From Candidatus Tepidifontimicrobium thermophilum (GTDB taxonomy: Bacteria > Sysuimicrobiota > Sysuimicrobiia > Sysuimicrobiales > Sysuimicrobiaceae), in the NCBI GenBank assembly GCA_031459915.1, contig JAVKHO010000008.1:32001-96000 (forward strand): DNA of 64,000 bases, in the 5' to 3' direction. Positions 6,477-63,994 of this stretch are shown here, piece after piece. Numbering within the stretch: the stretch's first letter is position 1; each line of letters opens with the position of its first letter. Below the pieces are notes generated by a model, which saw nothing but the letters and a program-made list of their open reading frames with translations, ran no database searches and was not told the DNA's origin. The translations under genes and the position numbers were made by a program.

Positions 6477-6980
6477 TCAGGACGTGGGAGCTGGCTGCCG
6501 GCTGGCCTTAACTCCGAGCCCGCTCCCCAGCAGCACGGCCAGCACCACGCCCGACAGCACGGCGGGCTCCGCGGGCACCGACAGGCCCAGGTGGGGGTCC
6601 AGCGCGTAGGCGCCGGGCCCGGTCAGGCCGACACCTACGGCGACCGCGGCGTTGACCAGCGGGTACTCAAAGCCGCCGTTCTCGGCCCAGAGCCCGTGGC
6701 GGGCATGCACCAGGACGGTGGCCGCCGCCATCACCGGGACCAACAGGACCGGGGCCAGGGGCGTGAGCAAGCCCAGGGCCAGCAACGCACCGCCCACCAG
6801 CTCTGCTAGCCCTGCGGCCAGCGCCCACACCCAGCCCGGCCGGAGGCCCAGCGACTCCATCCAGGCTCCCGTCTGGGCCAGGCCCGCCCCGGAGGGCCAG
6901 CCGAACAGCTTCTGAGCCCCGTGCCCGACGAACAGGAGCCCGACCACCGACCGCACGATCAGCAAGCCCAGGTCCAGCAT
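6477..6980 (-). CDS. DoxX family membrane protein
   Basis: HGAQKLFGW, AELVGG, NGGFEYPL, GPGAYALD; RBS AAAGGAGGT before ATG 6980. Confidence 0.9.
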   Translation of the reverse strand: MLDLGLLIVRSVVGLLFVGHGAQKLFGWPSGAGLAQTGAWMESLGLRPGWVWALAAGLAELVGGALLALGLLTPLAPVLLVPVMAAATVLVHARHGLWAENGGFEYPLVNAAVAVGVGLTGPGAYALDPHLGLSVPAEPAVLSGVVLAVLLGSGLGVKASRQPAPTS

Positions 6981-8132: not shown

Positions 8133-9071
8133 ATGGGGTTCACGGTGACCGACCTGGCCGACCTGTTGCGGCTGCTGGAGGAGCGGCCGGAGTGGAAGAA
8201 TGCCCTACGCACGGTCCTGCTGGGAGAAGAGTTCCTGCAGCTCCCGGAGCTCGTCCGGCGTCTTGCCGTGGGGCAGGAGCGGATCCAGCAGGAACTGGCG
8301 GCTCTCGCTGCGGAGGTGCGCGGTCTAGCGGAGGCGCAGCGGCGGACGGAGGAGCGGGTGGGGCGGCTGGAGCAGGCGCTGGCGGAGCTAGCGGAGGCGC
8401 AGCGACGGACGGAGGAGCGGGTAGGGCGGCTGGAGCAGGCGCTGGCGGAGCTAGCGGAGGCGCAGCGGCGGACGGAGGAGCGGGTGGGGCGGCTGGAGCA
8501 GGCGCTGGCGGAGCTAGCGGAGGCGCAGCGGCGGACGGAGGAGCGGGTGGGGCGGCTGGAGCAGGCGCTGGCGGAGCTAGCGGAGGCGCAGCGGCGGACG
8601 CAGCAGCAGCTTTCCGGGGTCGTGGGGGCGCTCCGCGTGGTGGAGGCGCGCCTGGGCCGCCTGGAAGACGCGCTCGGGTTGACCGTGGAGGAGCACGCGG
8701 AAGACATCCTGCTGATGGTTCTGGAGGACAAGGGCCTCCGCGTCCTGGAGGGGCCGCACCCGATCCCGGTGGACGGTGAGGGGCAGGTGGACCTGGCAGC
8801 GGTTTGCGAGGACGCTTCGGGCAACCGTCTGACCGTGGTGGTGGAGTCCAAGGCCCGGCTATCCGTGTCTGCGTTGCGCCGGTGGGCTGATCGGGTGGGG
8901 TCTAGCGCGTTTCGGGACAAGCTGCGGCAGGCCGGGCTGCCCGGCCCGTTCCTCGCGTACGCGTTCGGTATCCGGGTGGACCGGGCAGTGGAGCAGGCGG
9001 CTCGCGAGCGGGGTCTGGGTTTGCTGTCCGGCCGCGGTGAGCTTGTCGCCCCGGCCGGCCCTCTGGACTGA
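8133..9071 (+). CDS. Coiled-coil repeat protein with a C-terminal PD-(D/E)xK-like domain
   Basis: TACAAT 7 nt before the ATG (leaderless); 21-aa repeats [22 protein letters not shown]-terminal QVDLAAV...VVVESKARL. Confidence 0.8.
8325..8600 (+). repeat. In-frame 63-bp tandem repeat, 4 full copies plus a 24-bp partial copy
   Basis: Units start at 8325, 8388, 8451, 8514 and 8577; copy 2 carries two synonymous changes. Confidence 0.95.
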
Positions 9072-9120
9072 GATCCTCCCCGTAATCCTCCGACCCTCCG
9101 GCTCACCCAGTGCGGGCGGC

Positions 9121-9167
9121 TTGTCAAGGTGGGCACCTTGACAACCCGCCCCCGCACGCCGCACACT
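9121..9167 (+). promoter_or_regulatory. Perfect inverted repeat TTGTCAAGGTG-GG-CACCTTGACAA overlapping a TTGACA-N18-CACACT promoter
   Basis: Read directly at 9121-9144; -35 at 9138-9143, -10 at 9162-9167. Confidence 0.6.
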
Positions 9168-9206
9168 GGGAGGACGACGGAAGCAGAGGTGGAGGGGGCC
9201 TGCGGG

Positions 9207-10646
9207 ATGAACAGGACGGAGCGTTCGGCGCGGTTGGAGATCCGCCCCGGAGCCACCGTGCACGCCTCCGACGGCGTGGCCGGGGAGCTGGCGCAAGTGG
9301 TGGTGAGCCCCCGGGAGCGGCGCGTGGTCGCCGTGGTGGTCCGGCTGGGTTCGGGACGGGAAGTGGTACTCCCCGCGGAGGCGGTGGAGGACGCCACGGA
9401 GGAAGCCGTCTGGGTTCGCGGGTCGCTGGCGGAACTGGAACAGCTACCCAACTGGGAGGCGGAGGCCCACGCCCCGGCGTCCCTTTCGTGGCCCGGCTGG
9501 CGTCGGTTGCGGGAGGGCGGCGCCTGGCTCGCGCTGCCGGGTTCCCTGCGGCGGATGGAAGGGCTGCAGCGCCGGATGTCAGGGCCGGCGGAACCCCGCC
9601 CGGACGAGCGGTTGGTCACCATCCGCCGCGGGCAGCGGGTGCTGGCCAGCGACGGCCCCATCGGCCGGGTGGACCAGGTGCTGGTGGACGCAGCCACGGG
9701 GCGCGTGAAGCACTTGGTGATCCGCCAGGGGCTTCTGTTTTCCCGTGACGTCGCGATCCCTGCGGACTGGGTGGGTACGGTGGAGGACGGCGTGGTGGTC
9801 CTAGAAGCTTCCCGGGAGGCGGTCGGGCGCCTGCCCGGCTACCGGCCGGACGACGAGCTGGAGCGGGACGTAGAGGAGGCGCTCCAGCGAGAGGAGCTGC
9901 TCCGGACCCTGGCCATCCCCGTACGCGCCGAGGTGACCGACGGAGTGGTCCGGCTGCGGGGTCACGTCCACAACCGGGCCCTGGCCGGACGGGCGGAGGA
10001 GGTGGCGCGGTCGGTCCCCGGTGTGGTGGACGTACGCAACGAACTGGTGGTGGACCATGAACTCCTGCAGGAGGTCGTGGCGTCCGTGCAGGCGGACGAG
10101 GCCACGCGTCACCTCGTGGGCTACTACCTGCGGGTGCGGGACGGCGTGGTGGAACTCACGGGCACGCTCCCGTCCCTGGAGGCGGCGCGGGCGCTGGAAC
10201 GGGCTATCGCTCGGGTGCCCGGAGTGCGGGGAGTTGCGAACCACCTGACGGGTCTGGACATCCCCCCCAACTGGCGTCAGGTGGTGCAGCCGGAAGTTGG
10301 GCAGGCCGTGTACGCCACGGATCAGGAGGTGGGCCGGGTGGCGTCGGTGGTGGTGGATCCCGACAGCCGGCGGGTGCAGGCGGTGGTGGTGGCCGGCGAC
10401 TTTCCGGACCCGGGGTCCCCACCGTTCTCCGCGGGTCCGCTCTGGGAGCGGCGGGTGGTCGTACCCCTGGAGGACGTGGAGCGGGTGACCCCGTCTGGCG
10501 TGTTCCTGCGGGTGCACGCGGGGGAGGCCGCGGAGCGGCCGGACCTGCGGGAGGAAGACTACCCGCGCCCGCCGGCAGGGTGGACGCCGCCGTTCCCGTA
10601 CGAGGTCCACCAGGTCCGCTGGCCCCGCAAGGCCGAGGCGTCTTAG
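9207..10646 (+). CDS. PRC-barrel and BON domain protein (PRC-PRC-BON-BON-PRC)
   Basis: Three segments of the G-x-x-V-x-A-S/T-D-x-x-x-G-x-V-x-x-V-x-V type; two BON repeats ([10 protein letters not shown]...[23 protein letters not shown]...[11 protein letters not shown]). Confidence 0.8.
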
Positions 10647-10677
10647 TGTCAAAAGACTTGACAATGACGTTGTCACC
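10647..10677 (+). promoter_or_regulatory. HAIR-like operator CTTGACA-N7-TGTCACC with an upstream TGTCAA half-site, before hspR
   Basis: TGTCAAAAGACTTGACAATGACGTTGTCACC; same spacing as the HspR HAIR (CTTGAGT-N7-ACTCAAG). Confidence 0.6.
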
Positions 10678-10718
10678 CTGCTACTGGTGGACGTGGAAAC
10701 TGTCGGCGAGGTCGGGCT

Positions 10719-11039
10719 GTGGCGGAGCGCACCGTCCGGCGGGAGGAGTTGCCCGTGTACGTGATCAGCGTGGCCGCGGAGCTGGCGGGGGTGCACCCGC
10801 GGACCTTGCGGATCTACGAAGCGAAGGGCCTGATCCGTCCGGCCCGACGCAAGCACATCCGGCTGTTCAGTGAGCGGGATGTGCAGCGGGTGAGGTTGAT
10901 CCAGTACCTGACGCAGGAGGTGGGGCTGAACCTGGCCGGGGTCCGGCTGTTCCTGGAGATCCAGGAACGGCACGAGGAGGTGGCCCGGTGGTTGCTGGAG
11001 CTGTGCGACACCCAAACCGAAAGGAGGGGAAGGCGATGA
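10719..11039 (+). CDS. hspR: MerR-family heat-shock repressor HspR
   Basis: PVYVISVAAELAGVHPRTLRIYE...GLNLAGV; heads the chaperone operon. Confidence 0.9.
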   Translation: MAERTVRREELPVYVISVAAELAGVHPRTLRIYEAKGLIRPARRKHIRLFSERDVQRVRLIQYLTQEVGLNLAGVRLFLEIQERHEEVARWLLELCDTQTERRGRR

Positions 11040-11488
11040 GCATTCTGCGGTGGGATCCCTTCGAGGAGCTGCGGGAGATGCAGCGGTCGCTGGACCGGCT
11101 GTTCGACGAGCTGACCGGCCGGCGGCCCGTGCGGCGTCGGGAGCCGCGGGAGCCGGTGGTGTGGGAGCCCGCGGTGGAGGTGTTCGAGACGGACCAGGAC
11201 GTGGTGGTCCGCGCAGAGCTGCCGGGCGTGGACCCCAAGAACGTGAACGTGACGGTCCAGGACAACACCGTCACCATCGAGGCGGAGGCGAAGGAGGAGC
11301 AGGAGGAGCGCGGCCGCAACTACCTGCGGCGGGAGCTGCGCTACGGACAGTTCTGCCGGACCCTGGCGCTGCCTACGGAGGTGAAGGCAGAGGAGGCCAA
11401 GGCCACCTACCGCAACGGCCTGCTGGAGCTGCGAGTGCCCAAGAGCGAACGGGCCAAGCCCAAGCAGGTGAAGGTGGAGGTCCGGTGA
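11036..11488 (+). CDS. Hsp20/alpha-crystallin small heat-shock protein
   Basis: RWDPFEEL, PAVEVFET, AELPGVD, YGQFCRTLALP, ATYRNGLLELRVPK. Confidence 0.95.
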   Translation: MSILRWDPFEELREMQRSLDRLFDELTGRRPVRRREPREPVVWEPAVEVFETDQDVVVRAELPGVDPKNVNVTVQDNTVTIEAEAKEEQEERGRNYLRRELRYGQFCRTLALPTEVKAEEAKATYRNGLLELRVPKSERAKPKQVKVEVR

Positions 11489-11550
11489 GCTGAGGTCGTC
11501 GACAGCTGGGGGCGGCCCCCGAGGGGCCGCCCCCAGGAGGAGGGAGAGAC

Positions 11551-13434
11551 ATGGGCAGGGTCGTCGGCATCGATCTGGGAACCACCAACTCGGTCATCGC
11601 GGCCATGGTGGGCGGGGAGCCGGTGGTGATCCCGAACCGGGAGGGCAGCCGTCTTACGCCTTCCGTGGTGGCCTTCACGAAGACGGGGGAGCGGCTGGTG
11701 GGCCAGATGGCCAAGCGTCAGGCCATCCTGAACCCCGAGAACACCATCTACTCCATCAAACGCTTCATGGGGCGCCGCTTCCACGAGGTGGAAGTGGAGC
11801 GGAAGATGGTGCCCTACAAGGTGGTGGAGGGCCAGCACGGGATGGCGGTGGTGGAGATCCCCGCGGCAGGCCGCACCTTCACCCCGGAGGAGATCTCCGC
11901 CATGATCCTGCAGAAGCTGAAGGAGGACGCGGAGGCCTACCTGGGGGAGAAGGTGGAGGCCGCGGTGATCACCGTACCCGCGTACTTCAACGACGCCCAG
12001 CGGACCGCCACGAAGAACGCCGGGGAGATCGCGGGGTTGAAGGTCCTGCGGATCATCAACGAGCCCACCGCCGCCTGCCTGGCGTACGGGCTGGACAAGA
12101 AGGGTTCGGAGACGGTGTTGGTGTGGGACCTGGGTGGGGGGACCTTTGACGTCTCCGTCCTGGAGATCGGTGAGGGCGTGTTCCAGGTGCGGGCCACCGC
12201 CGGGGACACCCACCTCGGCGGGGATGACTGGGACGAGCGGATCGTGAACTGGCTGGCCGACGAGTTCCGCAAGCAGCACGGCATCGACCTGCGGCAGGAC
12301 CGGCAGGCCCTGCAGCGGCTCCGGGAGGCGGCGGAGCGGGCCAAGATCGAACTCAGCACGATGGTGCAGACCACCATCAACCTCCCGTTCATCACCGCCG
12401 ACGCCACGGGGCCCAAGCACCTGGACATGGTGCTGACCCGGGCCAAGTTCGAGGAGCTCACCGCGGACCTCGTGGAACGGTGCATCGGCCCCTTCCGGCA
12501 GGCCCTGCAGGACGCCAAGCTCAGCGAGCGGGACCTGCACGAGGTCATCCTGGTGGGCGGCAGCACCCGCATGCCCATGATCCAGGAGCTGGTGCGCCGG
12601 CTCACGGGGAAGGAGCCCAACAAGGAGGTGCACCCGGACGAGGTGGTGGCCATCGGAGCCGCCATCCAGGCGGGCGTGCTGGCGGGCGAGGTGCGGGACG
12701 TGGTACTCCTGGACGTGACCCCGCTGTCCCTGGGCATCGAGACCCTGGGCGGGGTGATGACCGTCCTGATCCCCCGCAACACCACCATCCCCACCCGCAA
12801 GAGCGAGACCTTCACCACCGCGGAGGACGGCCAGACGCAGGTGGAGATCCACGTGCTTCAGGGGGAGCGGCCCATGGCCCGCGACAACCGCACCCTGGGC
12901 CGGTTCATCCTGGACGGGATCCCGCCTGCGCCGCGGGGCGTGCCCAAGATCGAGGTGACCTTTGACATCGACGCCAACGGGATCCTGGCGGTGTCCGCCA
13001 AGGACCTGGCCACGGGCCGCGAGCAGTCCATCAAGATCACCGGCACCTCCACCCTGACCCGGGAGGAGGTGGAGCGGATGATCCGGGAGGCGGAGGCCCA
13101 CGCGGAGGAGGACCGCCGGAAGCGGGAGGAGGCGGAGATCCTGAACCGCGGGGACAGCCTCGCCTACCAGACGGAGCGGCTGCTCCGGGACCAGGCCAAG
13201 GTAGTGTCCGAAGCGGACCGGCGGGAGTTGGAACAGAAGGTGGCGGAGCTTCGCCAGGCGGTGCAGGCCCGGGACGTGGCCCGGGTCCGGCAGCTGTCGG
13301 ACGAGGTGCAGCGGCTCACCTACAGGTTGAGCGAGCTGTTGTACCGGGGTGCCGCCACGGGCGCCAGCACCGGGGGCAAGGAGACCCGGGGCGACGGCGA
13401 GGTGATCGACGCGGACTACAAGCCCAGCGACTAG
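11551..13434 (+). CDS. dnaK: Molecular chaperone DnaK
   Basis: [47 protein letters not shown]. Confidence 0.99.
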
Positions 13435-57093: not shown

Positions 57094-57765
57094 ATGGCGG
57101 CCCGGATCCTAGTGGTGGACGACGAGCCGCCCCTGGTCGACGCCATCCGGTTCGCCCTCCAGCGGGAGGGCCACGAGGTGGCGGAGGCCCTGGACGGCCT
57201 GCGGGCCCTGGAGCTGGCCCGGTCCGAGCGGTTCGACCTGATCCTACTGGACGTCATGCTGCCGGGCATGAGCGGGTTCGAGCTGTGCCGGATCCTGCGG
57301 CAGGACAGCGACGTCCCCATCGTGCTGCTCACCGCCCGGTCGGACGAGACCGACCGCGTGGTGGGGTTGGACCTCGGTGCGGACGACTACGTCACCAAGC
57401 CTTTCTCCATGCGGGAGCTCATGGCCCGGGTGCGGGCGGCCCTGCGTCGGCGGGGGATCCAGCAGACAGCTCCTCTGTCGGTGGGCGACCTGGTGTTGGA
57501 CCCCGCGCGCCACGAGGTGCGTTGCGGCGGCCGGTCCTTGCCCCTGAGCCCCAAGGAGTACGACCTGCTGGAGGTCCTGTTGCGAAACGCACGGCGGGTC
57601 CTCAGCCGCGGCCAGCTGCTGGAGCGGGTGTGGGGCTACGACTATGAGGGGGACGAGCGCACCGTGGACGTGCACGTCTCGTGGCTTCGGCGCAAGCTGC
57701 GGGAGGCGGGCTCCGCGGTGCGCATCGAGACCGTGCGCGGAGTTGGGTACCGTCTGGAACCCTGA
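57094..57765 (+). CDS. OmpR/PhoB family response regulator
   Basis: ILVVDDE, LLDVMLP, DDYVTKPF, RTVDVH, TVRGVGY. Confidence 0.96.
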   Translation: MAARILVVDDEPPLVDAIRFALQREGHEVAEALDGLRALELARSERFDLILLDVMLPGMSGFELCRILRQDSDVPIVLLTARSDETDRVVGLDLGADDYVTKPFSMRELMARVRAALRRRGIQQTAPLSVGDLVLDPARHEVRCGGRSLPLSPKEYDLLEVLLRNARRVLSRGQLLERVWGYDYEGDERTVDVHVSWLRRKLREAGSAVRIETVRGVGYRLEP

Positions 57766-57792
57766 TCCGCCCTGTACAGGGCACCCAGCATC

Positions 57793-59094
57793 GTGAGTCC
57801 CCGGACATGGTGGGTTCTGGCGGCGGTGGCCGGTGCCGCGGCCGCGTGGGCTTGGGCCGCGGCGGACCGGTGGGCTGCGGCCTTCGGGTGGCTGGCCTGC
57901 GTCGCATTCCTGGTGGCGGGCTGGCGGGAGTGGTCCTGGCGGCGGGCCGTTCGGGCTGTCGCGCAGGGACTCCGCGACCCGCGCGCCTTGGAGCGGGAGG
58001 GGGCTTCTGGCCGGGAGCTGGCCGCGGCGGTGGAGTCCGTGCTGCGGGAGGTGCGGGAGGACCTGCAACGGGCCCGGGCCCGGGGGAGCCACCTCCGGGA
58101 GCTGGTGGAGGCGCTCCCGTGGGGTCTCGTGGAGCTGGACCACCGGCGGCGGGCGGTGTGGGTGAACCGTCCCGCGGCGGCCCTGCTGGGCGTCCAGCGC
58201 GAGCAGGCGGCGGACACGTCCGCGGTGGCGCTCTTTCGACGCCACGAGGTGGACGAACTACTGGACCGTGCAGAGCGGGCCGGCGAGGCGGTGCGGGACC
58301 TGGAGCTGGGCGGCGTGCTGCAGGTGGTGGCCCGTCGGCTGGCCTCAGGCGGGTTCTTGCTCCTGGTGCAGGACGTGACCCAGGATCGTCGGGCGGAGGC
58401 GGTGCGGCGCGACTTCGTGGCCAACGTCTCCCACGAGCTGCGCACCCCCCTTGCGTCGGTGCGGGCCATGGCGGAGGCGCTGCGGGACGGCGCACTGGAA
58501 GACCCACAGCTGGCGGCCCGGTTCCTCGCTCAGATGCTCCAGGAGGTGGACCGTATGAGCCGGCTGGTGAACGACCTGCTGGACCTGTCCGCCCTGGAGG
58601 CCGGGGTGGTGCGCCTGCGGTGGGAGGACCTCGAGGCGGAGGAACTGCTGGAGGCGGTGGCGCGGCGGTACGCGGCCGCAGCCGAGCGGAAGGGAGTGGC
58701 CCTGGTGGTCCAGCCCGGAAAGGCGCGGGTCCGGGGCGACCGGGATCGGCTGGAGCAGGCCCTTGGGAACCTGGTGGACAACGCGGTCAAGTACACACCG
58801 TCTGGCGGCCAGGTGGTGCTCAAGGTAGAGCTACGCGACGGGGAGGTGTCTCTGGTGGCGGAGGACACGGGCCCAGGGATCCCTCCAGAGCACCTCCCCC
58901 GGGTGTTCGAGCGCTTCTACCGCGCCGACCCTTCCCGCAGCCGGGCGGAGGGAGGGACAGGGCTGGGGCTGGCCATCACCAAGCACATCGCCCTGGCTCA
59001 CGGGGGCCGGGTGGAGGCGGCCAACCGCCCGACCGGCGGCGCCCGGCTGGCGGTGGTCCTGCCTGCGGCCGGCGGCGGAACGCGGGAACGGTAG
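57793..59094 (+). CDS. PhoR-like sensor histidine kinase (PAS + HisKA + HATPase)
   Basis: FVANVSHELRTPL, NLVDNAVKY, DTGPGI, GTGLGL. Confidence 0.95.
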   Translation: MSPRTWWVLAAVAGAAAAWAWAAADRWAAAFGWLACVAFLVAGWREWSWRRAVRAVAQGLRDPRALEREGASGRELAAAVESVLREVREDLQRARARGSHLRELVEALPWGLVELDHRRRAVWVNRPAAALLGVQREQAADTSAVALFRRHEVDELLDRAERAGEAVRDLELGGVLQVVARRLASGGFLLLVQDVTQDRRAEAVRRDFVANVSHELRTPLASVRAMAEALRDGALEDPQLAARFLAQMLQEVDRMSRLVNDLLDLSALEAGVVRLRWEDLEAEELLEAVARRYAAAAERKGVALVVQPGKARVRGDRDRLEQALGNLVDNAVKYTPSGGQVVLKVELRDGEVSLVAEDTGPGIPPEHLPRVFERFYRADPSRSRAEGGTGLGLAITKHIALAHGGRVEAANRPTGGARLAVVLPAAGGGTRER

Positions 59095-59099
59095 CCGGC

Positions 59100-60716
59100 T
59101 CAGCCAGACCGCGCACCCACGCCCGATACGGCACCAGTCCCGAAGACCCGCTGGTAGACGTCCTCCGCGTGGCTGGTGGGTAGCGGCTCCGCCTCCACCA
59201 TGCGGTACGTGCGCCGGCCCTGGGCGTCCCGCTCCGCCCGCAGGAACAGCACGGAGCCGGATCGCCGGGCGCGGAAGCGATCCGCCAGTTCGAAGAAGTG
59301 AGTAACGAAGAACACGCGGACCCCCGCTTCCGTCAACGCGTCCAGAACCTGGCAGGCGATCTCCGACCCCTCGCGCTCGTGGGTGGCGGAGAAGGACTCG
59401 TTGCACAGGAACACCGAGCGCGCGGTGGCGAGGTCCACGAGGGTTCGCATGCGACGGAGTTCCTCCACGAACTTGCCGGACTCCAGGCGCGGGTCCTCCT
59501 CCCGCTTGAAGTGGGTCAGCACCCCGTCACAGACGCTTACGGCGAAGGACTGGGCGGGCACGAACAGGCCCGCCTGCGCCATCAGCCAGGCGATCCCCAC
59601 GCTCCGGAGGAAGGTGGTCTTGCCCCCGGAGTTGGGCCCGGTGATCAGGACGAGGCGCTTGCCGTTCGCCTCGAGGTCGTTGGGGACGACAGTTCGGTCG
59701 GTTGCCAGGGCCAGCACGGGGTCGTAGAGGCCTCGGGCGGAAAGGTTGTAGCCTGCGGGATGCACGGAGGGCAGGCAGGTGGGGAATCCGCGCCGGCGAA
59801 GCTGAGTGTGCAGCCGCAGACCGCCCACGTAGAAGGCGAGTTCGGCGCGCAGGCAGGAGAAGAAGTCCCGGACGTGGTCGGCGGCCTGGCCCACGGCCGT
59901 GGCTGCTGAGGCCAGAGCCCGGTCCCGCAGGGCCTCCAGGGCCTTGACACCCGCCTCATCGCGAGGAGACAGCTCGAAGGTGTAGGCATCCTGGCCCCGA
60001 CGGAACCACGCCTTCCACCGCTCCAGCCAGCTCCGGGGGCCCTCCGGAGGCGGGTGCAGGAGGAGGTCGGTGGGCTTGTTGGCAGGCCCAAGACGCGCGC
60101 TCCAAAGGTGGCCGTGTGGTAGCCTCAGAGCGTCCAGGTGGTGTTGCATCTCACCGAGATAGGAGTCCTCCAGGTCACGGTGCAGCGCTGCGAACAAGCG
60201 CCTCCAGCCCTCGCTGTGGAAGCGAGGCGCGTGGCGATCCGCGGCGGACTTCAGCCGGCGGAGGGAGCCCAGCAGCGCCGCGAGAGTCCCGACGGACTCG
60301 CGCAGCACCCAGTCGGGGTAGCGGGCGAGGACGCCCAGATACCGGCCTTTGAGTTTGTCTGCGGCCTCCAGACTGACCCCATACAGCTCCAGAACAGCGT
60401 CCGGGTTGTCCAGACAGTCTGCCAGTACGGCCTGTCGGTGGGCCACCACAGCAGGGTCTGCGGACGTGCCCTCCAGCAGGAGCCTCCGGCTGACCTCGAA
60501 GACCAGGTCGTCCTCCCCGGCCATGGCCTCCAGGAGGGGTAACAGCCCCAGGTCCTGGACTAGGTCGTCCACGTTTGGGGGAAGTCCCGCGGAAGGATCG
60601 AAGCCTGGGGGAGGGGCAGTGTGGTGGCCGGCCCGCAGGCCCGCTCGGACCGTGGCGGCCTGCAGGGCCCAGCGCCAGTCGAAATCCCGGTCGGGGTACA
60701 GTAGGCGCGGGGTCAT
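59100..60716 (-). CDS. Short MutS-family ATPase B (domain V, no mismatch-recognition or Smr domain; MutS4-like)
   Basis: GLYDPVL, ITGPNSGGKTTFLRSVG, AQAGLFVPA, SGKFVEEL, FLCNESFSAT, FVTH. Confidence 0.88.
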   Translation of the reverse strand: MTPRLLYPDRDFDWRWALQAATVRAGLRAGHHTAPPPGFDPSAGLPPNVDDLVQDLGLLPLLEAMAGEDDLVFEVSRRLLLEGTSADPAVVAHRQAVLADCLDNPDAVLELYGVSLEAADKLKGRYLGVLARYPDWVLRESVGTLAALLGSLRRLKSAADRHAPRFHSEGWRRLFAALHRDLEDSYLGEMQHHLDALRLPHGHLWSARLGPANKPTDLLLHPPPEGPRSWLERWKAWFRRGQDAYTFELSPRDEAGVKALEALRDRALASAATAVGQAADHVRDFFSCLRAELAFYVGGLRLHTQLRRRGFPTCLPSVHPAGYNLSARGLYDPVLALATDRTVVPNDLEANGKRLVLITGPNSGGKTTFLRSVGIAWLMAQAGLFVPAQSFAVSVCDGVLTHFKREEDPRLESGKFVEELRRMRTLVDLATARSVFLCNESFSATHEREGSEIACQVLDALTEAGVRVFFVTHFFELADRFRARRSGSVLFLRAERDAQGRRTYRMVEAEPLPTSHAEDVYQRVFGTGAVSGVGARSG

Positions 60717-62245
60717 GGGACGAAGCGCTGGCGGACGTCGTGGTACGTGAGTCGGTACCTCTGGGCCAGGGCCTCCGCGTACGCGCGCCCGTCCGCTGGA
60801 CGACGCAGCACGCGGAAGGTGCGCCCTTCGGGCTGGCCTGGCGGCACCGTGGCTACCAGGCTCACGGTCTTCTCGTTCAGGGAAGCCAGCTCATCGAGGA
60901 ACGTCACCCACACGCACAGGCCGCCAATCTCCAAGAGCCGGCCCAGCAGCCGTCGGCTCAGGGTGCGGGCGTCGCGGAGGGCGGTGGAGGAGAGGATCTC
61001 GTTGACGATCACCACACTTTTGGGGGTCGCAACCTGGAGGATCTCACGGATCCTCAGAAGGTCGTCTTCCAGTTTGCCGTGCAGGTCCAGCGTGTACTCT
61101 CCGCGGGGAAAGTGGGTGAGGACGTGGTCCGGCACCGGAAGGGCGGCCTGCCGGCCAGGGACCGGGCAACCGAGCGAAGCCAGGTAGAAGACCTGACCCA
61201 CCGCGCGGGCGAAGGTAGTCTTTCCGCCCTGGTTGGGACCGGTGACCACCAGGGCCCGCTCCGGAGAACGGAAGAGGAAGTCGTTGAGGACCGGCACCCG
61301 GCCGTGCGCCACCAGCTTCGCGGCCAGTGCGAGGTCGAAGCAGCCCTGGGCGAAGGCTTCTGAATTGTCCGCGCGCAGGGTGGGCAAGCAGAAGGGCAGG
61401 CCTGCCGCCTCGAGGGGAGCGAGGAAGTCTAGGTAGCCCAGGTAGAACTGGGCCTCCCGGTCGAAGGCGTCGATCCAACGTGCCGGCAGTCCCCCGCACG
61501 TTCTCCGGAAGTCCGCCACCCGAAAGAACAGGTCCGGGTTCAGGCGGGAAACCCCTTCCAGGATCTGCGCTTCCACGTGGTTCAGCTCCGCGGAGTGCCG
61601 GAACTCGAAGGCGTACGGGGTGCCGTGGGCCTGTCGGAAACGCTCGAAGGTGGACCGCACCACTTCCGCGTAGTCGGGCTCCCCCCGGTAGGGGCGGACG
61701 GTGACCCTCAGGCCCTGGACGAGCACCGCAAAGCGCAGGGACGATAGCTCCGCCTGCAGGCTCTCGGCGGCCTCCGCGAGGCTGCGGAATGCGGGGGAAG
61801 CGGCGTACGCGGCCAGCAGGTCGCGGAAGCGCACGAGCCCACGGCTGTGGAGCGGACAGGAGGACAGGCCCTCCAACAGCGCGAGGACTGCCTGCACGTA
61901 GAGGTGGGCCGCGTCAAGGAACCAGCGGTCTTTCTCCAGCGTGGAGTATGCCTTGTCCGCACGGCGCAGGTGGGCCCGCACCGCGCGGAGGGCCGAAGCG
62001 AAGGCACGGACCGCGTCCGACACTCGGGGCTCCCGGAAATCGCGGAAGACCTCCTGGCGGAAGGAGACCGTGTCGCTGTCCCGCAGCGGGGTGTAGAAGA
62101 CGGGTTCCAGGCCGTACTCCCCCCGGTCCGCCACGATGGCCTCCACCACCCGGTCCAGCTCTAAGTCCCGCAGGCATGCGGGCGGTCGTTCCCGGAGCGC
62201 CGGAGGTTGGCCTGAAGGAAAAAGGAGGCTCGAAACCTCGTCCAT
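60713..62245 (-). CDS. Short MutS-family ATPase A (domain V; MutS4-like)
   Basis: VTGPNQGGKTTFAR, LGCPVP, GKLEDDL, VIVNEILSST, WVTF; its stop overlaps the start of partner B (ATGA). Confidence 0.88.
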   Translation of the reverse strand: MDEVSSLLFPSGQPPALRERPPACLRDLELDRVVEAIVADRGEYGLEPVFYTPLRDSDTVSFRQEVFRDFREPRVSDAVRAFASALRAVRAHLRRADKAYSTLEKDRWFLDAAHLYVQAVLALLEGLSSCPLHSRGLVRFRDLLAAYAASPAFRSLAEAAESLQAELSSLRFAVLVQGLRVTVRPYRGEPDYAEVVRSTFERFRQAHGTPYAFEFRHSAELNHVEAQILEGVSRLNPDLFFRVADFRRTCGGLPARWIDAFDREAQFYLGYLDFLAPLEAAGLPFCLPTLRADNSEAFAQGCFDLALAAKLVAHGRVPVLNDFLFRSPERALVVTGPNQGGKTTFARAVGQVFYLASLGCPVPGRQAALPVPDHVLTHFPRGEYTLDLHGKLEDDLLRIREILQVATPKSVVIVNEILSSTALRDARTLSRRLLGRLLEIGGLCVWVTFLDELASLNEKTVSLVATVPPGQPEGRTFRVLRRPADGRAYAEALAQRYRLTYHDVRQRFVP

Positions 62246-62667
62246 CAGTGGACCACCATCACGGGGCAGTGGGCGTACCGGAGCACGCGCTCGGAGACCG
62301 AGCCCAGCATCCAGCGCTGCACAGGCGTGAGCCCGCGTCGGCCCAGGACGATGAGGTCGAAGGCTTCTTCACGGGCCACCCGTACCAGGACCTCTGCGGG
62401 GTGGCCCACCTCGGTGCGCAGGGTCACCGGAACCCCCGCCTTGCGGGCCTGGTCCCGGGCCCAGCGGAAGGCCTCCGCCAACGGTCCACGGGACTGAGCC
62501 ACGGCTGCGTCCACCTCGCCCTGCAGCTCCGCGAACTCCGGCGGACGCACTACCGCCAGCGCGACCACGTCCGCGCGGTACCGGCTGGCCAGGTCCAGAG
62601 CGGCCAGCAGCGCCTTTCGGGCTGCCGGGGATCCGTCGTAGCCGACCAGTACGCGCCGGAACATCAT
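62245..62667 (-). CDS. Universal stress protein
   Basis: VLVGYDGSPAA, GHPAEVL, DLIVLGRRG, LGSVSERVLRYAHCPVMVV. Confidence 0.95.
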   Translation of the reverse strand: MMFRRVLVGYDGSPAARKALLAALDLASRYRADVVALAVVRPPEFAELQGEVDAAVAQSRGPLAEAFRWARDQARKAGVPVTLRTEVGHPAEVLVRVAREEAFDLIVLGRRGLTPVQRWMLGSVSERVLRYAHCPVMVVH

Positions 62668-63851
62668 TCACCTCCGGGGGCCAGGGCCAGCTCGGGAGCC
62701 GCCTGCTGCACGTGGTGGGCGGGAAGGAAGAAGCGGTTGGCGATCCAGGTGGGCACCACCGCGCTGGCCACGACCGCGCTCACGAGGAAGGAGTACTGCG
62801 CCTGGTCGATGATGCCGTGGGTGAGGCCGTACAGGGAGGAAATGGTCCCGAAGGTGAGCCCGGTGGACATCAGCAGGGTCGTGTACATGGCCTCGTCCCG
62901 CGCGTACCGGTACGCCCGGGTCAACGGGAACACGCCGGCAAACTTGCTCAGGGCTTTGGCCGCGAAGAGCACCGCGAACGTCCCCAGACCGCCCGCCACG
63001 ACGGGGAGCTGGACCAGCAGCCCCGCGCGGATGAAGTAGAAGGGGGTGAGCAGCCCGAAGGTGAGGCTGCGCAGGCGTCGGACCAGTTCGTGGTGGCGGC
63101 CCACGGTCCCCGCCAGGGCCATTCCCAACACGTACGCGGGGAGGACCGCTTCGGACCCGGACCACGCCGCCAGGGCGCCCAGGGCGAACAGCACCCCCAG
63201 GAGGAATTTCACTTCCAGCTCAGAGGTCCGGCCAGCGAAGCGGCGCAGCACGGGCCGGGCGGCGCGGGCGCAACCCCATAGGGCGACCCCGAGAGCTGCG
63301 ACGAACACTACGGTGCGCCAGCTGAAGGGAGCGAACAGGAGCCCCAGAGCCACCACCGTCCCCAGGTCGTTGATGAAGCACGCTGCGAGGATGACCTTGC
63401 CGTACTCGGTGCGGTTGATCCCCAGTTCCAGGAGCACCGCGTACACGACCGCCACGGAGGTGGTGGACAGGGCGACCCCTGCGACCCAGCTGGCCTGGGG
63501 AGCCCACCCCAGGACCTGCCGGGCGGCCCACGCGGCGCCCAAAAAGGGAGCCAGGAAGCCGGCCAGACCCATCACCGTGGCCTCCTTCCAGCGCCTGCGG
63601 AAGGCGTCTGGGTCGAGCTCGGCTCCCGCGAGGAAGGTGAGGACCACCGATCCGGTACCCGCGAGGAAAGCCACCCAGCCATCCCGGACTCCGGGCAACG
63701 AGGTGTGGCCGAAAACCCCCATGAGCAGCTGGCTCAAGATTCCGACGAGGATCTCGGTGAGGGCTACGGAGACCCGCAGCCAGCTTCCCAGAAGGGCGGC
63801 GAGCAGGGCGAGGGCCAGCCACGCTGCCGCGGTCCACCAGATGGTTTCCAT
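62664..63851 (-). CDS. Cation:proton antiporter (CPA2/Na+/H+ exchanger family)
   Basis: Highly hydrophobic polytopic protein; FLAGAELD, ALSTTSVAVV, ACFINDL, PFYFIRAG. Confidence 0.9.
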   Translation of the reverse strand: METIWWTAAAWLALALLAALLGSWLRVSVALTEILVGILSQLLMGVFGHTSLPGVRDGWVAFLAGTGSVVLTFLAGAELDPDAFRRRWKEATVMGLAGFLAPFLGAAWAARQVLGWAPQASWVAGVALSTTSVAVVYAVLLELGINRTEYGKVILAACFINDLGTVVALGLLFAPFSWRTVVFVAALGVALWGCARAARPVLRRFAGRTSELEVKFLLGVLFALGALAAWSGSEAVLPAYVLGMALAGTVGRHHELVRRLRSLTFGLLTPFYFIRAGLLVQLPVVAGGLGTFAVLFAAKALSKFAGVFPLTRAYRYARDEAMYTTLLMSTGLTFGTISSLYGLTHGIIDQAQYSFLVSAVVASAVVPTWIANRFFLPAHHVQQAAPELALAPGGE

Positions 63852-63880
63852 GGAGTCGACCTCCGGCGGGGTAGAGGCCG

Positions 63881-63917
63881 AAAAAGATTGGCCCCTACCC
63901 GACTTGGGTAGGAGCCA
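63881..63917 (-). terminator. Riboswitch-linked intrinsic terminator
   Basis: Minus strand GGCTCCTACCC-AAGTC-GGGTAGGGGCC followed by AATCTTTTT; the 5' arm overlaps the aptamer 3' end. Confidence 0.75.
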
Positions 63918-63957
63918 TCAGCCTCCGTGGGAGGCGGTTCGGGCGGGCTCCATCGCC
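63908..63957 (-). ncRNA. Fluoride (crcB motif) riboswitch aptamer
   Basis: Minus strand GGCGATGGAGCCCGCCCGAACCGCCTCCCACGGAGGCTGATGGCTCCTAC matches the recalled consensus GGCGATGGxGTTCGCC...AAxCGC-hairpin-GCTGATGxCTCCTAC, including the pseudoknot pairing GGAGCC/GGCTCC. Confidence 0.93.
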
Positions 63958-63964
63958 CGCGGGC

Positions 63965-63994
63965 ATTATCCGGCAAGCTCCCCGCGGCCGTCAA
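63965..63994 (-). promoter_or_regulatory. Sigma70 promoter TTGACG-N18-GATAAT for the riboswitch operon
   Basis: The -10 ends 7 nt before the aptamer's first G. Confidence 0.75.

Follow-up and report, generated by a model that had tools for sequence, protein, structure and literature searches.

How might a bacterium answer fluoride when it carries no recognizable fluoride exporter, and do the genes that it deploys form a single machine? This question is raised by a locus in a 64-kb stretch of the genome of Candidatus Tepidifontimicrobium thermophilum (contig JAVKHO010000008.1; the whole stretch of 64,000 nucleotides (nt) is hereafter called the window), in which a predicted fluoride riboswitch precedes four minus-strand genes, encoding a CPA-family exchanger (the antiporter), a universal stress protein (USP), and two MutS-like ATPases (MutS4A and MutS4B). 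Judged from gene neighborhoods, the antiporter with its USP and the MutS4A/B pair are two separable stress modules, each usually led by a riboswitch. The first of these is likely a one-for-one cation/proton exchanger that would counter the acid load of F- entry (probability of roughly 0.5). It should be noted that links of fluoride riboswitches to antiporters and to mutS are already published; what is new here, as read from the gene order, is that the two known modules are joined in a genome without a found exporter.

All four open reading frames (ORFs) were found where an earlier, sequence-only reading of this DNA had placed them. In order of transcription on the minus strand, they are a CPA-family exchanger of the NhaA fold, 395 aa (62664..63851; PF00999, E 2e-38), which is assigned to a fluoride-linked subfamily and predicted to be an electroneutral CPA2; the USP, 140 aa (62245..62667; PF00582, E 4e-36); a MutS4A-type ATPase, 510 aa (60713..62245; PF00488); and a MutS4B-type ATPase, 538 aa (59100..60716; PF00488). 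The three overlaps are present as well, the junctions reading ATGA, TGATG and ATGA, and translational coupling of the four genes is supported. A possible internal stop, the terminator-like hairpin at 62239-62225, was rejected: eight such sites were found compared to 3.8 expected, and the U-tract is lost in six relatives.

The promoter, fluoride aptamer and terminator that the same reading had recognized upstream of these genes were borne out, all on the minus strand. A sigma70-like promoter (TTGACG-18 nt-GATAAT, 63965..63994; 10/12 consensus matches) abuts the aptamer, ending at its first bases, and one such site was found versus 0.0 in shuffles of that region. The covariance-model search that had been proposed as a check was run, and places the fluoride riboswitch aptamer (crcB motif, RF01734) at 63902..63966 with 54 bits (E 3.6e-12), above the gathering score of 34; this is the sole Rfam match at the gathering threshold within the window. 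An intrinsic terminator (63879..63917), whose 12-bp hairpin and U-tract lie at 63917-63889, overlaps the 3' pseudoknot strand of the aptamer; shuffles of that region yield 0.3 such sites, and the hairpin forms in the predicted ligand-free fold (z -4.76), using that very strand. Such an ON-switch layout has been described for the crcB motif in Weinberg 2010 (PMC2864571; papers given with a PMC number stand, here and below, for the accessible part of their text). Across 16 homologues, P1, the pseudoknot and P3 are paired in 96.9% of 192 cells, compared to 37-55% in slid controls, and seven cells show changes on both sides, in a test that leans toward riboswitch structure, the structure having been drawn from the same 16 sequences. 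The window aptamer itself carries a compensatory C-G pair in the pseudoknot. Predicted control of the operon by a fluoride riboswitch is supported and, following established riboswitch behavior, F- binding would stabilize the pseudoknot, the terminator would be blocked, and the operon would be switched on. Of four RNA runs, two have low-depth contigs that are possibly DNA, one has two reads, and one has none. Among aptamers of relatives, acidobacterial variants (L014, L019, L022, L027 and L033, ~6855-6935) carry GAAGG instead of GAUGG, as well as a longer P3 and extra downstream pairing, and score low with the sequence-only model described below.

The distribution of the antiporter was surveyed in 63 loci, with relatives that are 51-92% identical to the window protein and come from Acidobacteriota, Pseudomonadota, Myxococcota, Spirochaetota, Chloroflexota and other bacteria. 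Riboswitch-like matches were called using a sequence-only model of 16 aptamers, the E-values of which are rough and the weak matches of which stand without Rfam confirmation; this model replaced earlier patterns (a strict one found three loci and a looser one 15/63). Such a match lies within 450 nt upstream of the antiporter gene in 52/63 loci, with 41 at >=20 bits and 13 of the 52 belonging to the training set. Within the window's order, 19 of the 61 genomes carry the antiporter, and an Rfam fluoride riboswitch is directly upstream in 18 of these 19, the exception being a genome that is 72% complete. Because of the riboswitch in 52/63 loci and in 18/19 order carriers, this antiporter is, by its genomic context, a fluoride-dedicated subfamily. 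The carrier counts are lower bounds; for example, a riboswitch-led copy in G076 (L197 332-1210) is split in two and was missed at 1e-40. The genes around the antiporter include USP in 47 loci, DUF190 in 40, Fluc in 28 and a MutS pair in four; since USP is found in 47 of the 63, it is a protein that, on this count, travels with the antiporter. Two of the four loci with a MutS pair have it inside the operon, and both are close kin of the window.

Other partners were seen in this survey. In three genomes (L208 1417-2673, L209 and L210), the riboswitch and antiporter are directly followed by a chromate transporter gene (PF02417). MutS matches beside the antiporter in these three loci were not counted as MutS4, the MutS-like ORF in L208 presumably being an ordinary MutS2. 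Large riboswitch operons (L016, L022, L023, L028 and L032-L036) combine the antiporter and USP with dynamin-like GTPases, Fluc, DUF6062, three DUF190 and an AAA ATPase.

Of 156 metagenome loci matching the first ATPase, the best 80 were used to follow the pair. The second ATPase gene comes after the first in 65 of the 66 loci with room by the script rule, and the 66th also has a second gene; the stop and start overlap in 50/52 intact pairs. A riboswitch-like match lies upstream of the pair within 500 nt in 35/62 loci and within 3.2 kb in 46/62, with none in 16, the 62 being the loci whose upstream sequence was long enough. Four plasmid records (Rhodococcus, Burkholderia, Alicyclobacillus and Mycobacterium) have the pair without the antiporter, surrounded by Rfam-grade fluoride riboswitches and by genes such as crcB and those for enolase and hydrogenase-like subunits. 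In another genome (G099; L164, 12815 onward), a riboswitch-led MutS4 pair has downstream of it a CLC gene that lacks the CLC-F signature.

These two surveys bear on the view that the four proteins are one obligate machine, in which the ATPase pair and the USP drive or gate the transporter. Such a machine would agree with the translational coupling at all three junctions, and the order antiporter-USP-MutS-MutS recurs on one Citrobacter and two Klebsiella plasmids, with a riboswitch found on the Citrobacter plasmid, the one that was checked; the plasmid proteins are 58, 37, 37 and 38% identical to those of the window. However, the plasmid copies have a gap of ~240 nt between the USP and MutS4A genes, the MutS pair is present in only 4/63 antiporter loci, and the neighborhood survey for a riboswitch with CPA, USP and two MutS genes, once run, found the four-gene order in only 10/80 MutS loci. 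In close relatives (G056, G058 and G060), the MutS pair immediately follows the riboswitch, with neither antiporter nor USP, and among the 61 order genomes the antiporter occurs with MutS4A in nine and alone in 10, and MutS4A occurs alone in three. Because the modules thus occur apart, in order genomes and in close relatives, the single machine is very improbable. The one fluoride-response system envisaged by the sequence-only reading holds with respect to riboswitch control, coupling and a probable heterodimer; its obligate joint action does not, given the 4/63 and 10/80 counts and the 10/19 order carriers without MutS4A. Among the surveyed loci, the four-gene order was found only in the window's lineage and on enterobacterial plasmids. 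Five of the 10 four-gene loci entered the MutS4A tree and all five group with the window; this is a quick tree with a long plasmid branch, and independent assembly of the order is not proven by it.

MutS4A and MutS4B are full-length paralogues, 26% identical. In the motifs that we take to be Walker A, Walker B and the H-loop, Walker A is intact in both, Walker B is NE in 63/63 A and 50/51 B proteins, and the H-loop is TF (degenerate) in 63/63 A proteins and TH (intact) in 51/51 B proteins. Because of this difference in the H-loop, the sequences suggest a heterodimer with one degenerate and one full site; the heterodimeric ATPase that had been proposed earlier is supported as probable by the asymmetric H-loops and the paired genes. 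Tandem MutS-ATPase genes, with the stop of A overlapping the start of B, are the signature of MutS4A/B (Lin, Nei and Ma 2007; PMC2190696), and the pair matches this described subfamily in sequence layout; a Mycobacterium branderi pair is 42% identical to it, an indirect link to the subfamily. Tandem genes, overlapping stop and start, and a patchy and mobile distribution are shared with MutS4A/B of Lin 2007 and Kim 2017 (PMC5742357). Conversely, the accessible text of the MutS4A/B papers assumes DNA metabolism, without a fluoride link, whereas most pairs surveyed here lie behind fluoride riboswitches; the NE Walker B and the asymmetric H-loops of the window pair and its relatives also stand apart from the description given there.

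Both ATPases have MutS_V as their only domain and end with the ATPase domain. Compared to the MutS1 families of NCBIfam, the pair scores 54-86 bits, with cut-offs of 480-642; for MutS2 (TIGR01069), the scores are 44 and 84 bits with a cut-off of 400, and for the KamC reactivase (NF052383) there is a weak match of 28 and 70 bits, below the cut-off of 300. The fold comparison covers MutS4B alone, the model of which (pLDDT 81.8) has its best match in residues 1-477 of T. maritima MutS2 (9kce; Z 28.3, root-mean-square deviation (rmsd) 3.3, 338 aligned), with which MSH6 is tied to within a single Z unit (rmsd 6.9). The lever and ATPase core are common to the window pair and the MutS2 core (T. maritima 9kce, T. 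thermophilus 7vuf and B. subtilis 7qv3); however, the pair is 18% identical to MutS2, lacks the C-terminal KOW/Smr, consists of two paralogues, and has Asn where MutS2 has the Walker B Asp. Because of the likeness to the MutS2 core and the weak KamC match, we tentatively take MutS4A/B, at somewhat less than even odds, for a remodeler of metal-fluoride-trapped complexes rather than a mismatch repair system. By analogy with MutS2, which splits stalled ribosomes (PMC10897456), MutS4A/B would spend ATP on freeing proteins or ribonucleoprotein complexes that metal-fluoride has stalled.

Three points weigh against this role: it is an argument by analogy throughout; the SMR and KOW domains, by which MutS2 is recruited (PMC10897456), are missing from the window pair; and expression of M. 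yongonense MutS4A/B in M. smegmatis gave 55 versus 22 recombinant colonies (Kim 2017; PMC5742357). The last result, the MutS fold of the pair, and the counting of mutS as DNA repair in Weinberg 2010 (PMC2864571) agree with another explanation, in which the pair has a role on DNA (recombination or damage response) and is switched on by reason of the DNA damage that fluoride stress causes, with the antiporter module as an unrelated passenger in one and the same regulon. We find this explanation doubtful. The recombination effect in Kim 2017 is small, the accessible text of that paper (PMC5742357) nowhere mentions fluoride, and the M. yongonense island also has enolase and hydrogenase-like genes, which are typical fluoride-regulon genes. 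Neither the domain scan of the two ATPases nor the MutS4B fold revealed a mismatch-recognition, connector or Smr domain, and the window genome retains two other MutS genes, both full-length.

The antiporter has the marks of the CPA superfamily: PF00999, the NhaA fold, and D7 and K/R8 of the CPA motif. Its model (pLDDT 86) gives Z 34.9 to MjNhaP1 (rmsd 3.6, 368 aligned) and SOS1. D162 and K303 are present in 40/40 aligned antiporters and, in NapA numbering, N161/D162/K303 align with NapA D156/D157/K305. The acidic residue at CPA motif position 6, a mark of the electrogenic NhaA and NapA, is missing in 40/40, position 161 being N in 34 and T in six; CPA2 proteins without this acid are expected to be electroneutral by the rules of Masrati 2018 (PMC6181914), and therefore electroneutral exchange would be expected of the window protein. 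Motif positions 1-4 are T-T-S-V, where position 4 is non-polar, as in NapA, and position 1 is polar, while the marks of K+-selective Kef-like CPA2 are Ser/Thr at position 4 (PMC6181914) and a KTN domain; by the motif rules, the Na+/K+ preference is ambiguous. TIGR00932 is matched by all 40 antiporters, with the window protein far below its cut-off; the window antiporter is below all NCBIfam cut-offs. The NhaA fold, the aspartate of transmembrane helix (TM) 5 and the TM10 lysine are shared with NapA (4bwz and 5bz2), KefC (8bxg) and the CPA1 protein MjNhaP1 (4czb). Unlike these, the window antiporter has ND and not DD, STGLTF and not PRGE at TM11, and an extra invariant lysine; it has no detected KTN domain and is accompanied by a separate USP.

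The USP keeps G-2X-G-9X-GS, which we take to be the nucleotide-binding motif of the family. A complex prediction of the antiporter with two USP copies scored 0.01, compared to a mark of 0.32, and is evidence in neither direction. Under the exchanger reading, Na+ or K+ would be moved against H+, and the USP may, at about even odds, tune the exchanger by its nucleotide state. The statement of the sequence-only reading that no mechanism is known for riboswitch-associated antiporters has been overtaken, as the 2024 review of Stockbridge and Wackett (PMC11139923) assigns riboswitch-linked Na+/H+ antiporters to pH homeostasis, its accessible text citing no test of this subfamily.

An exchanger of this kind would operate in a cell that is predicted to lack both known exporters. 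The absence of Fluc/CrcB and CLC-F, which had been noticed for the window, extends to the whole genome (G000; 2.6 Mb, 96.25% complete): searches of all of it gave 0 matches for Fluc (PF02537) and 0 for CLC (PF00654), with control searches matching in 11/14 and 12/14 genomes, respectively; tblastn of the genome with five Fluc and one CLC-F queries found nothing, and neither domain is present in the four operon proteins. The earlier idea of a fluoride response without a known exporter is supported by these searches. The genome holds one other PF00999 gene.

A second riboswitch unit lies outside the window (G000:C32:96027-98954, minus strand) and ends just upstream of the promoter of the four-gene operon. 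It has a promoter of its own and a sub-threshold aptamer with terminator, followed by genes for a small protein (the unannotated ORF), DUF6062 and an MFS transporter; the riboswitch-like element (G000:C32:98859-98925) is 2.9 kb upstream and has 28 bits, below Rfam gathering. Only two promoter-like sites were found in 8.8 kb, each abutting one of the two aptamers. The unannotated ORF is one frame here and two separate matches in most relatives. This unit (ORF, DUF6062 and MFS) recurs behind riboswitches across the phylum, and its MFS protein is another fluoride exporter candidate. ORFs diverging from the second riboswitch promoter (L007 ~9060-11774, plus strand) are, by eye, what we take to be a heavy-metal P-type ATPase-like and a MerR-like gene.

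The lack of a found Fluc or CLC invites a different reading of the antiporter, namely that this protein belongs to a third structural class of fluoride exporters, one with the NhaA fold, and that it replaces Fluc and CLC-F where these are missing and would protect whole lineages. Several observations that weigh against a plain cation exchanger belong here. The TM11 crossover is STGLTF in 40/40 sequences, compared to PRGE in NapA, and the same 40 have a second invariant lysine, K299; because of these two features, the substrate may be other than a simple cation, and, together with K303, they give the antiporter an atypical core. In the antiporter tree (FastTree, 67 rows, with a long-branch warning for two of the four groups named), the Fluc-free or nearly Fluc-free groups are the window's clade (13/14), a group of 5/5, 3/3 Spirochaetota and 4/4 Pseudomonadota. 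Five genomes (G078, G081, G084, G087 and G090) each yielded a single riboswitch, placed in front of the antiporter, with a chromate-transporter gene next in three of them. The fold is also found in anion carriers (PIN8, Z 18.2; SbtA, Z 17.1), and two plasmid islands carry Fluc and CLC-F together, so that redundancy is compatible with co-occurrence. Of the 19 antiporter carriers in the order, one has Fluc and four have CLC, none of the latter with the CLC-F signature; this signature, which comes only in part from PMC11139923, was seen in 0/27 CLC loci from 22 genomes and in both plasmid controls. By contrast, >85% of GEBA genomes carry an exporter (PMC11139923).

The exporter reading, though a serious rival, is nevertheless the less likely one, and we regard it as less likely than not. 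The absence of fluc from antiporter genomes, which was to be checked according to the sequence-only reading, holds for 18/19 order carriers and breaks down in more distant ones, 34 of 50 of which have Fluc over the cut-off (the 50 being those of the 63 loci with a testable genome). Fluc is within 28/63 antiporter loci, and the largest antiporter clade has it in 35/45 rows, often in the same operon, with core residues unchanged. In the order, 34/61 genomes have none of Fluc, CLC and the antiporter, so that lack of Fluc is a lineage trait, and within the family the exclusion between antiporter and Fluc is not significant (five antiporter only, four Fluc only, one both and two neither; Fisher p 0.24). 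The cation-binding aspartate is invariant. The riboswitch-linked MFS is an equally placed candidate: in a set of 73 phylum genomes with completeness of 85% or more, 18 were found to have the antiporter, 23 the MFS and six Fluc, the last a count that includes one unpublished genome (G119). In addition, the surveyed genomes are mostly incomplete assemblies and related to each other. The extended version, in which the antiporter would be the founding member of a third fluoride exporter class and MutS4A/B an ATP-driven reactivase freeing magnesium-fluoride-trapped enzymes or ribosomes, we likewise consider less likely than not.

Compared with known fluoride regulons, the locus is partly familiar. 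It has the same aptamer, overlapping terminator and ON logic as known RF01734 regulons, in contrast to which no Fluc or CLC-F was found in the window genome. Genes for mutS and for K+/Na+-H+ transport are among those regulated by the crcB motif in Weinberg 2010 (PMC2864571) and in Stockbridge and Wackett 2024 (PMC11139923), and, among riboswitch-linked classes, only the exporters outnumber Na+/H+ antiporters (PMC11139923). The accessible text of neither paper analyzes the antiporter or mutS genes by subfamily, residue or experiment. The E. cloacae island GI3 includes uspA (PMC5533749; also PMC11777429) and shares with the window a riboswitch-led operon with USP, and the plasmid four-gene copies sit beside a GI3-type gene set; however, GI3, as tabulated in the accessible text, has Fluc, and has neither the antiporter nor the MutS pair. 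Our literature searches, which most subscription papers lie outside, found no paper testing riboswitch-linked antiporters or mutS genes directly, linking MutS4 to fluoride, or identifying riboswitch-linked mutS as MutS4; two phrases searched in the Weinberg 2010 supplements gave no match.

On the plus strand, a response regulator and a PAS-HisKA histidine kinase (57094-59094), presumably a PhoB/PhoR-like pair, converge on the operon; their stop is 6 nt from that of MutS4B, with no terminator found between. This two-component pair was rejected as an operon member, being on the opposite strand.

Antiporter and mutS genes have been on record behind fluoride riboswitches since 2010-2012, and the value of this locus is its testability rather than surprise, since the riboswitch pairing was already known. 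In a phylum with Fluc detected in only 6/73 sampled genomes, it is a compact unit for deciding between pH homeostasis and a new class of exporter. Enterobacterial plasmids also carry the four-gene unit from host to host, and tolerance to fluoride is relevant where organofluorine degradation is to be engineered. For the MutS4 pair, the locus points to a concrete inducing signal, which argues against a mismatch-repair annotation.

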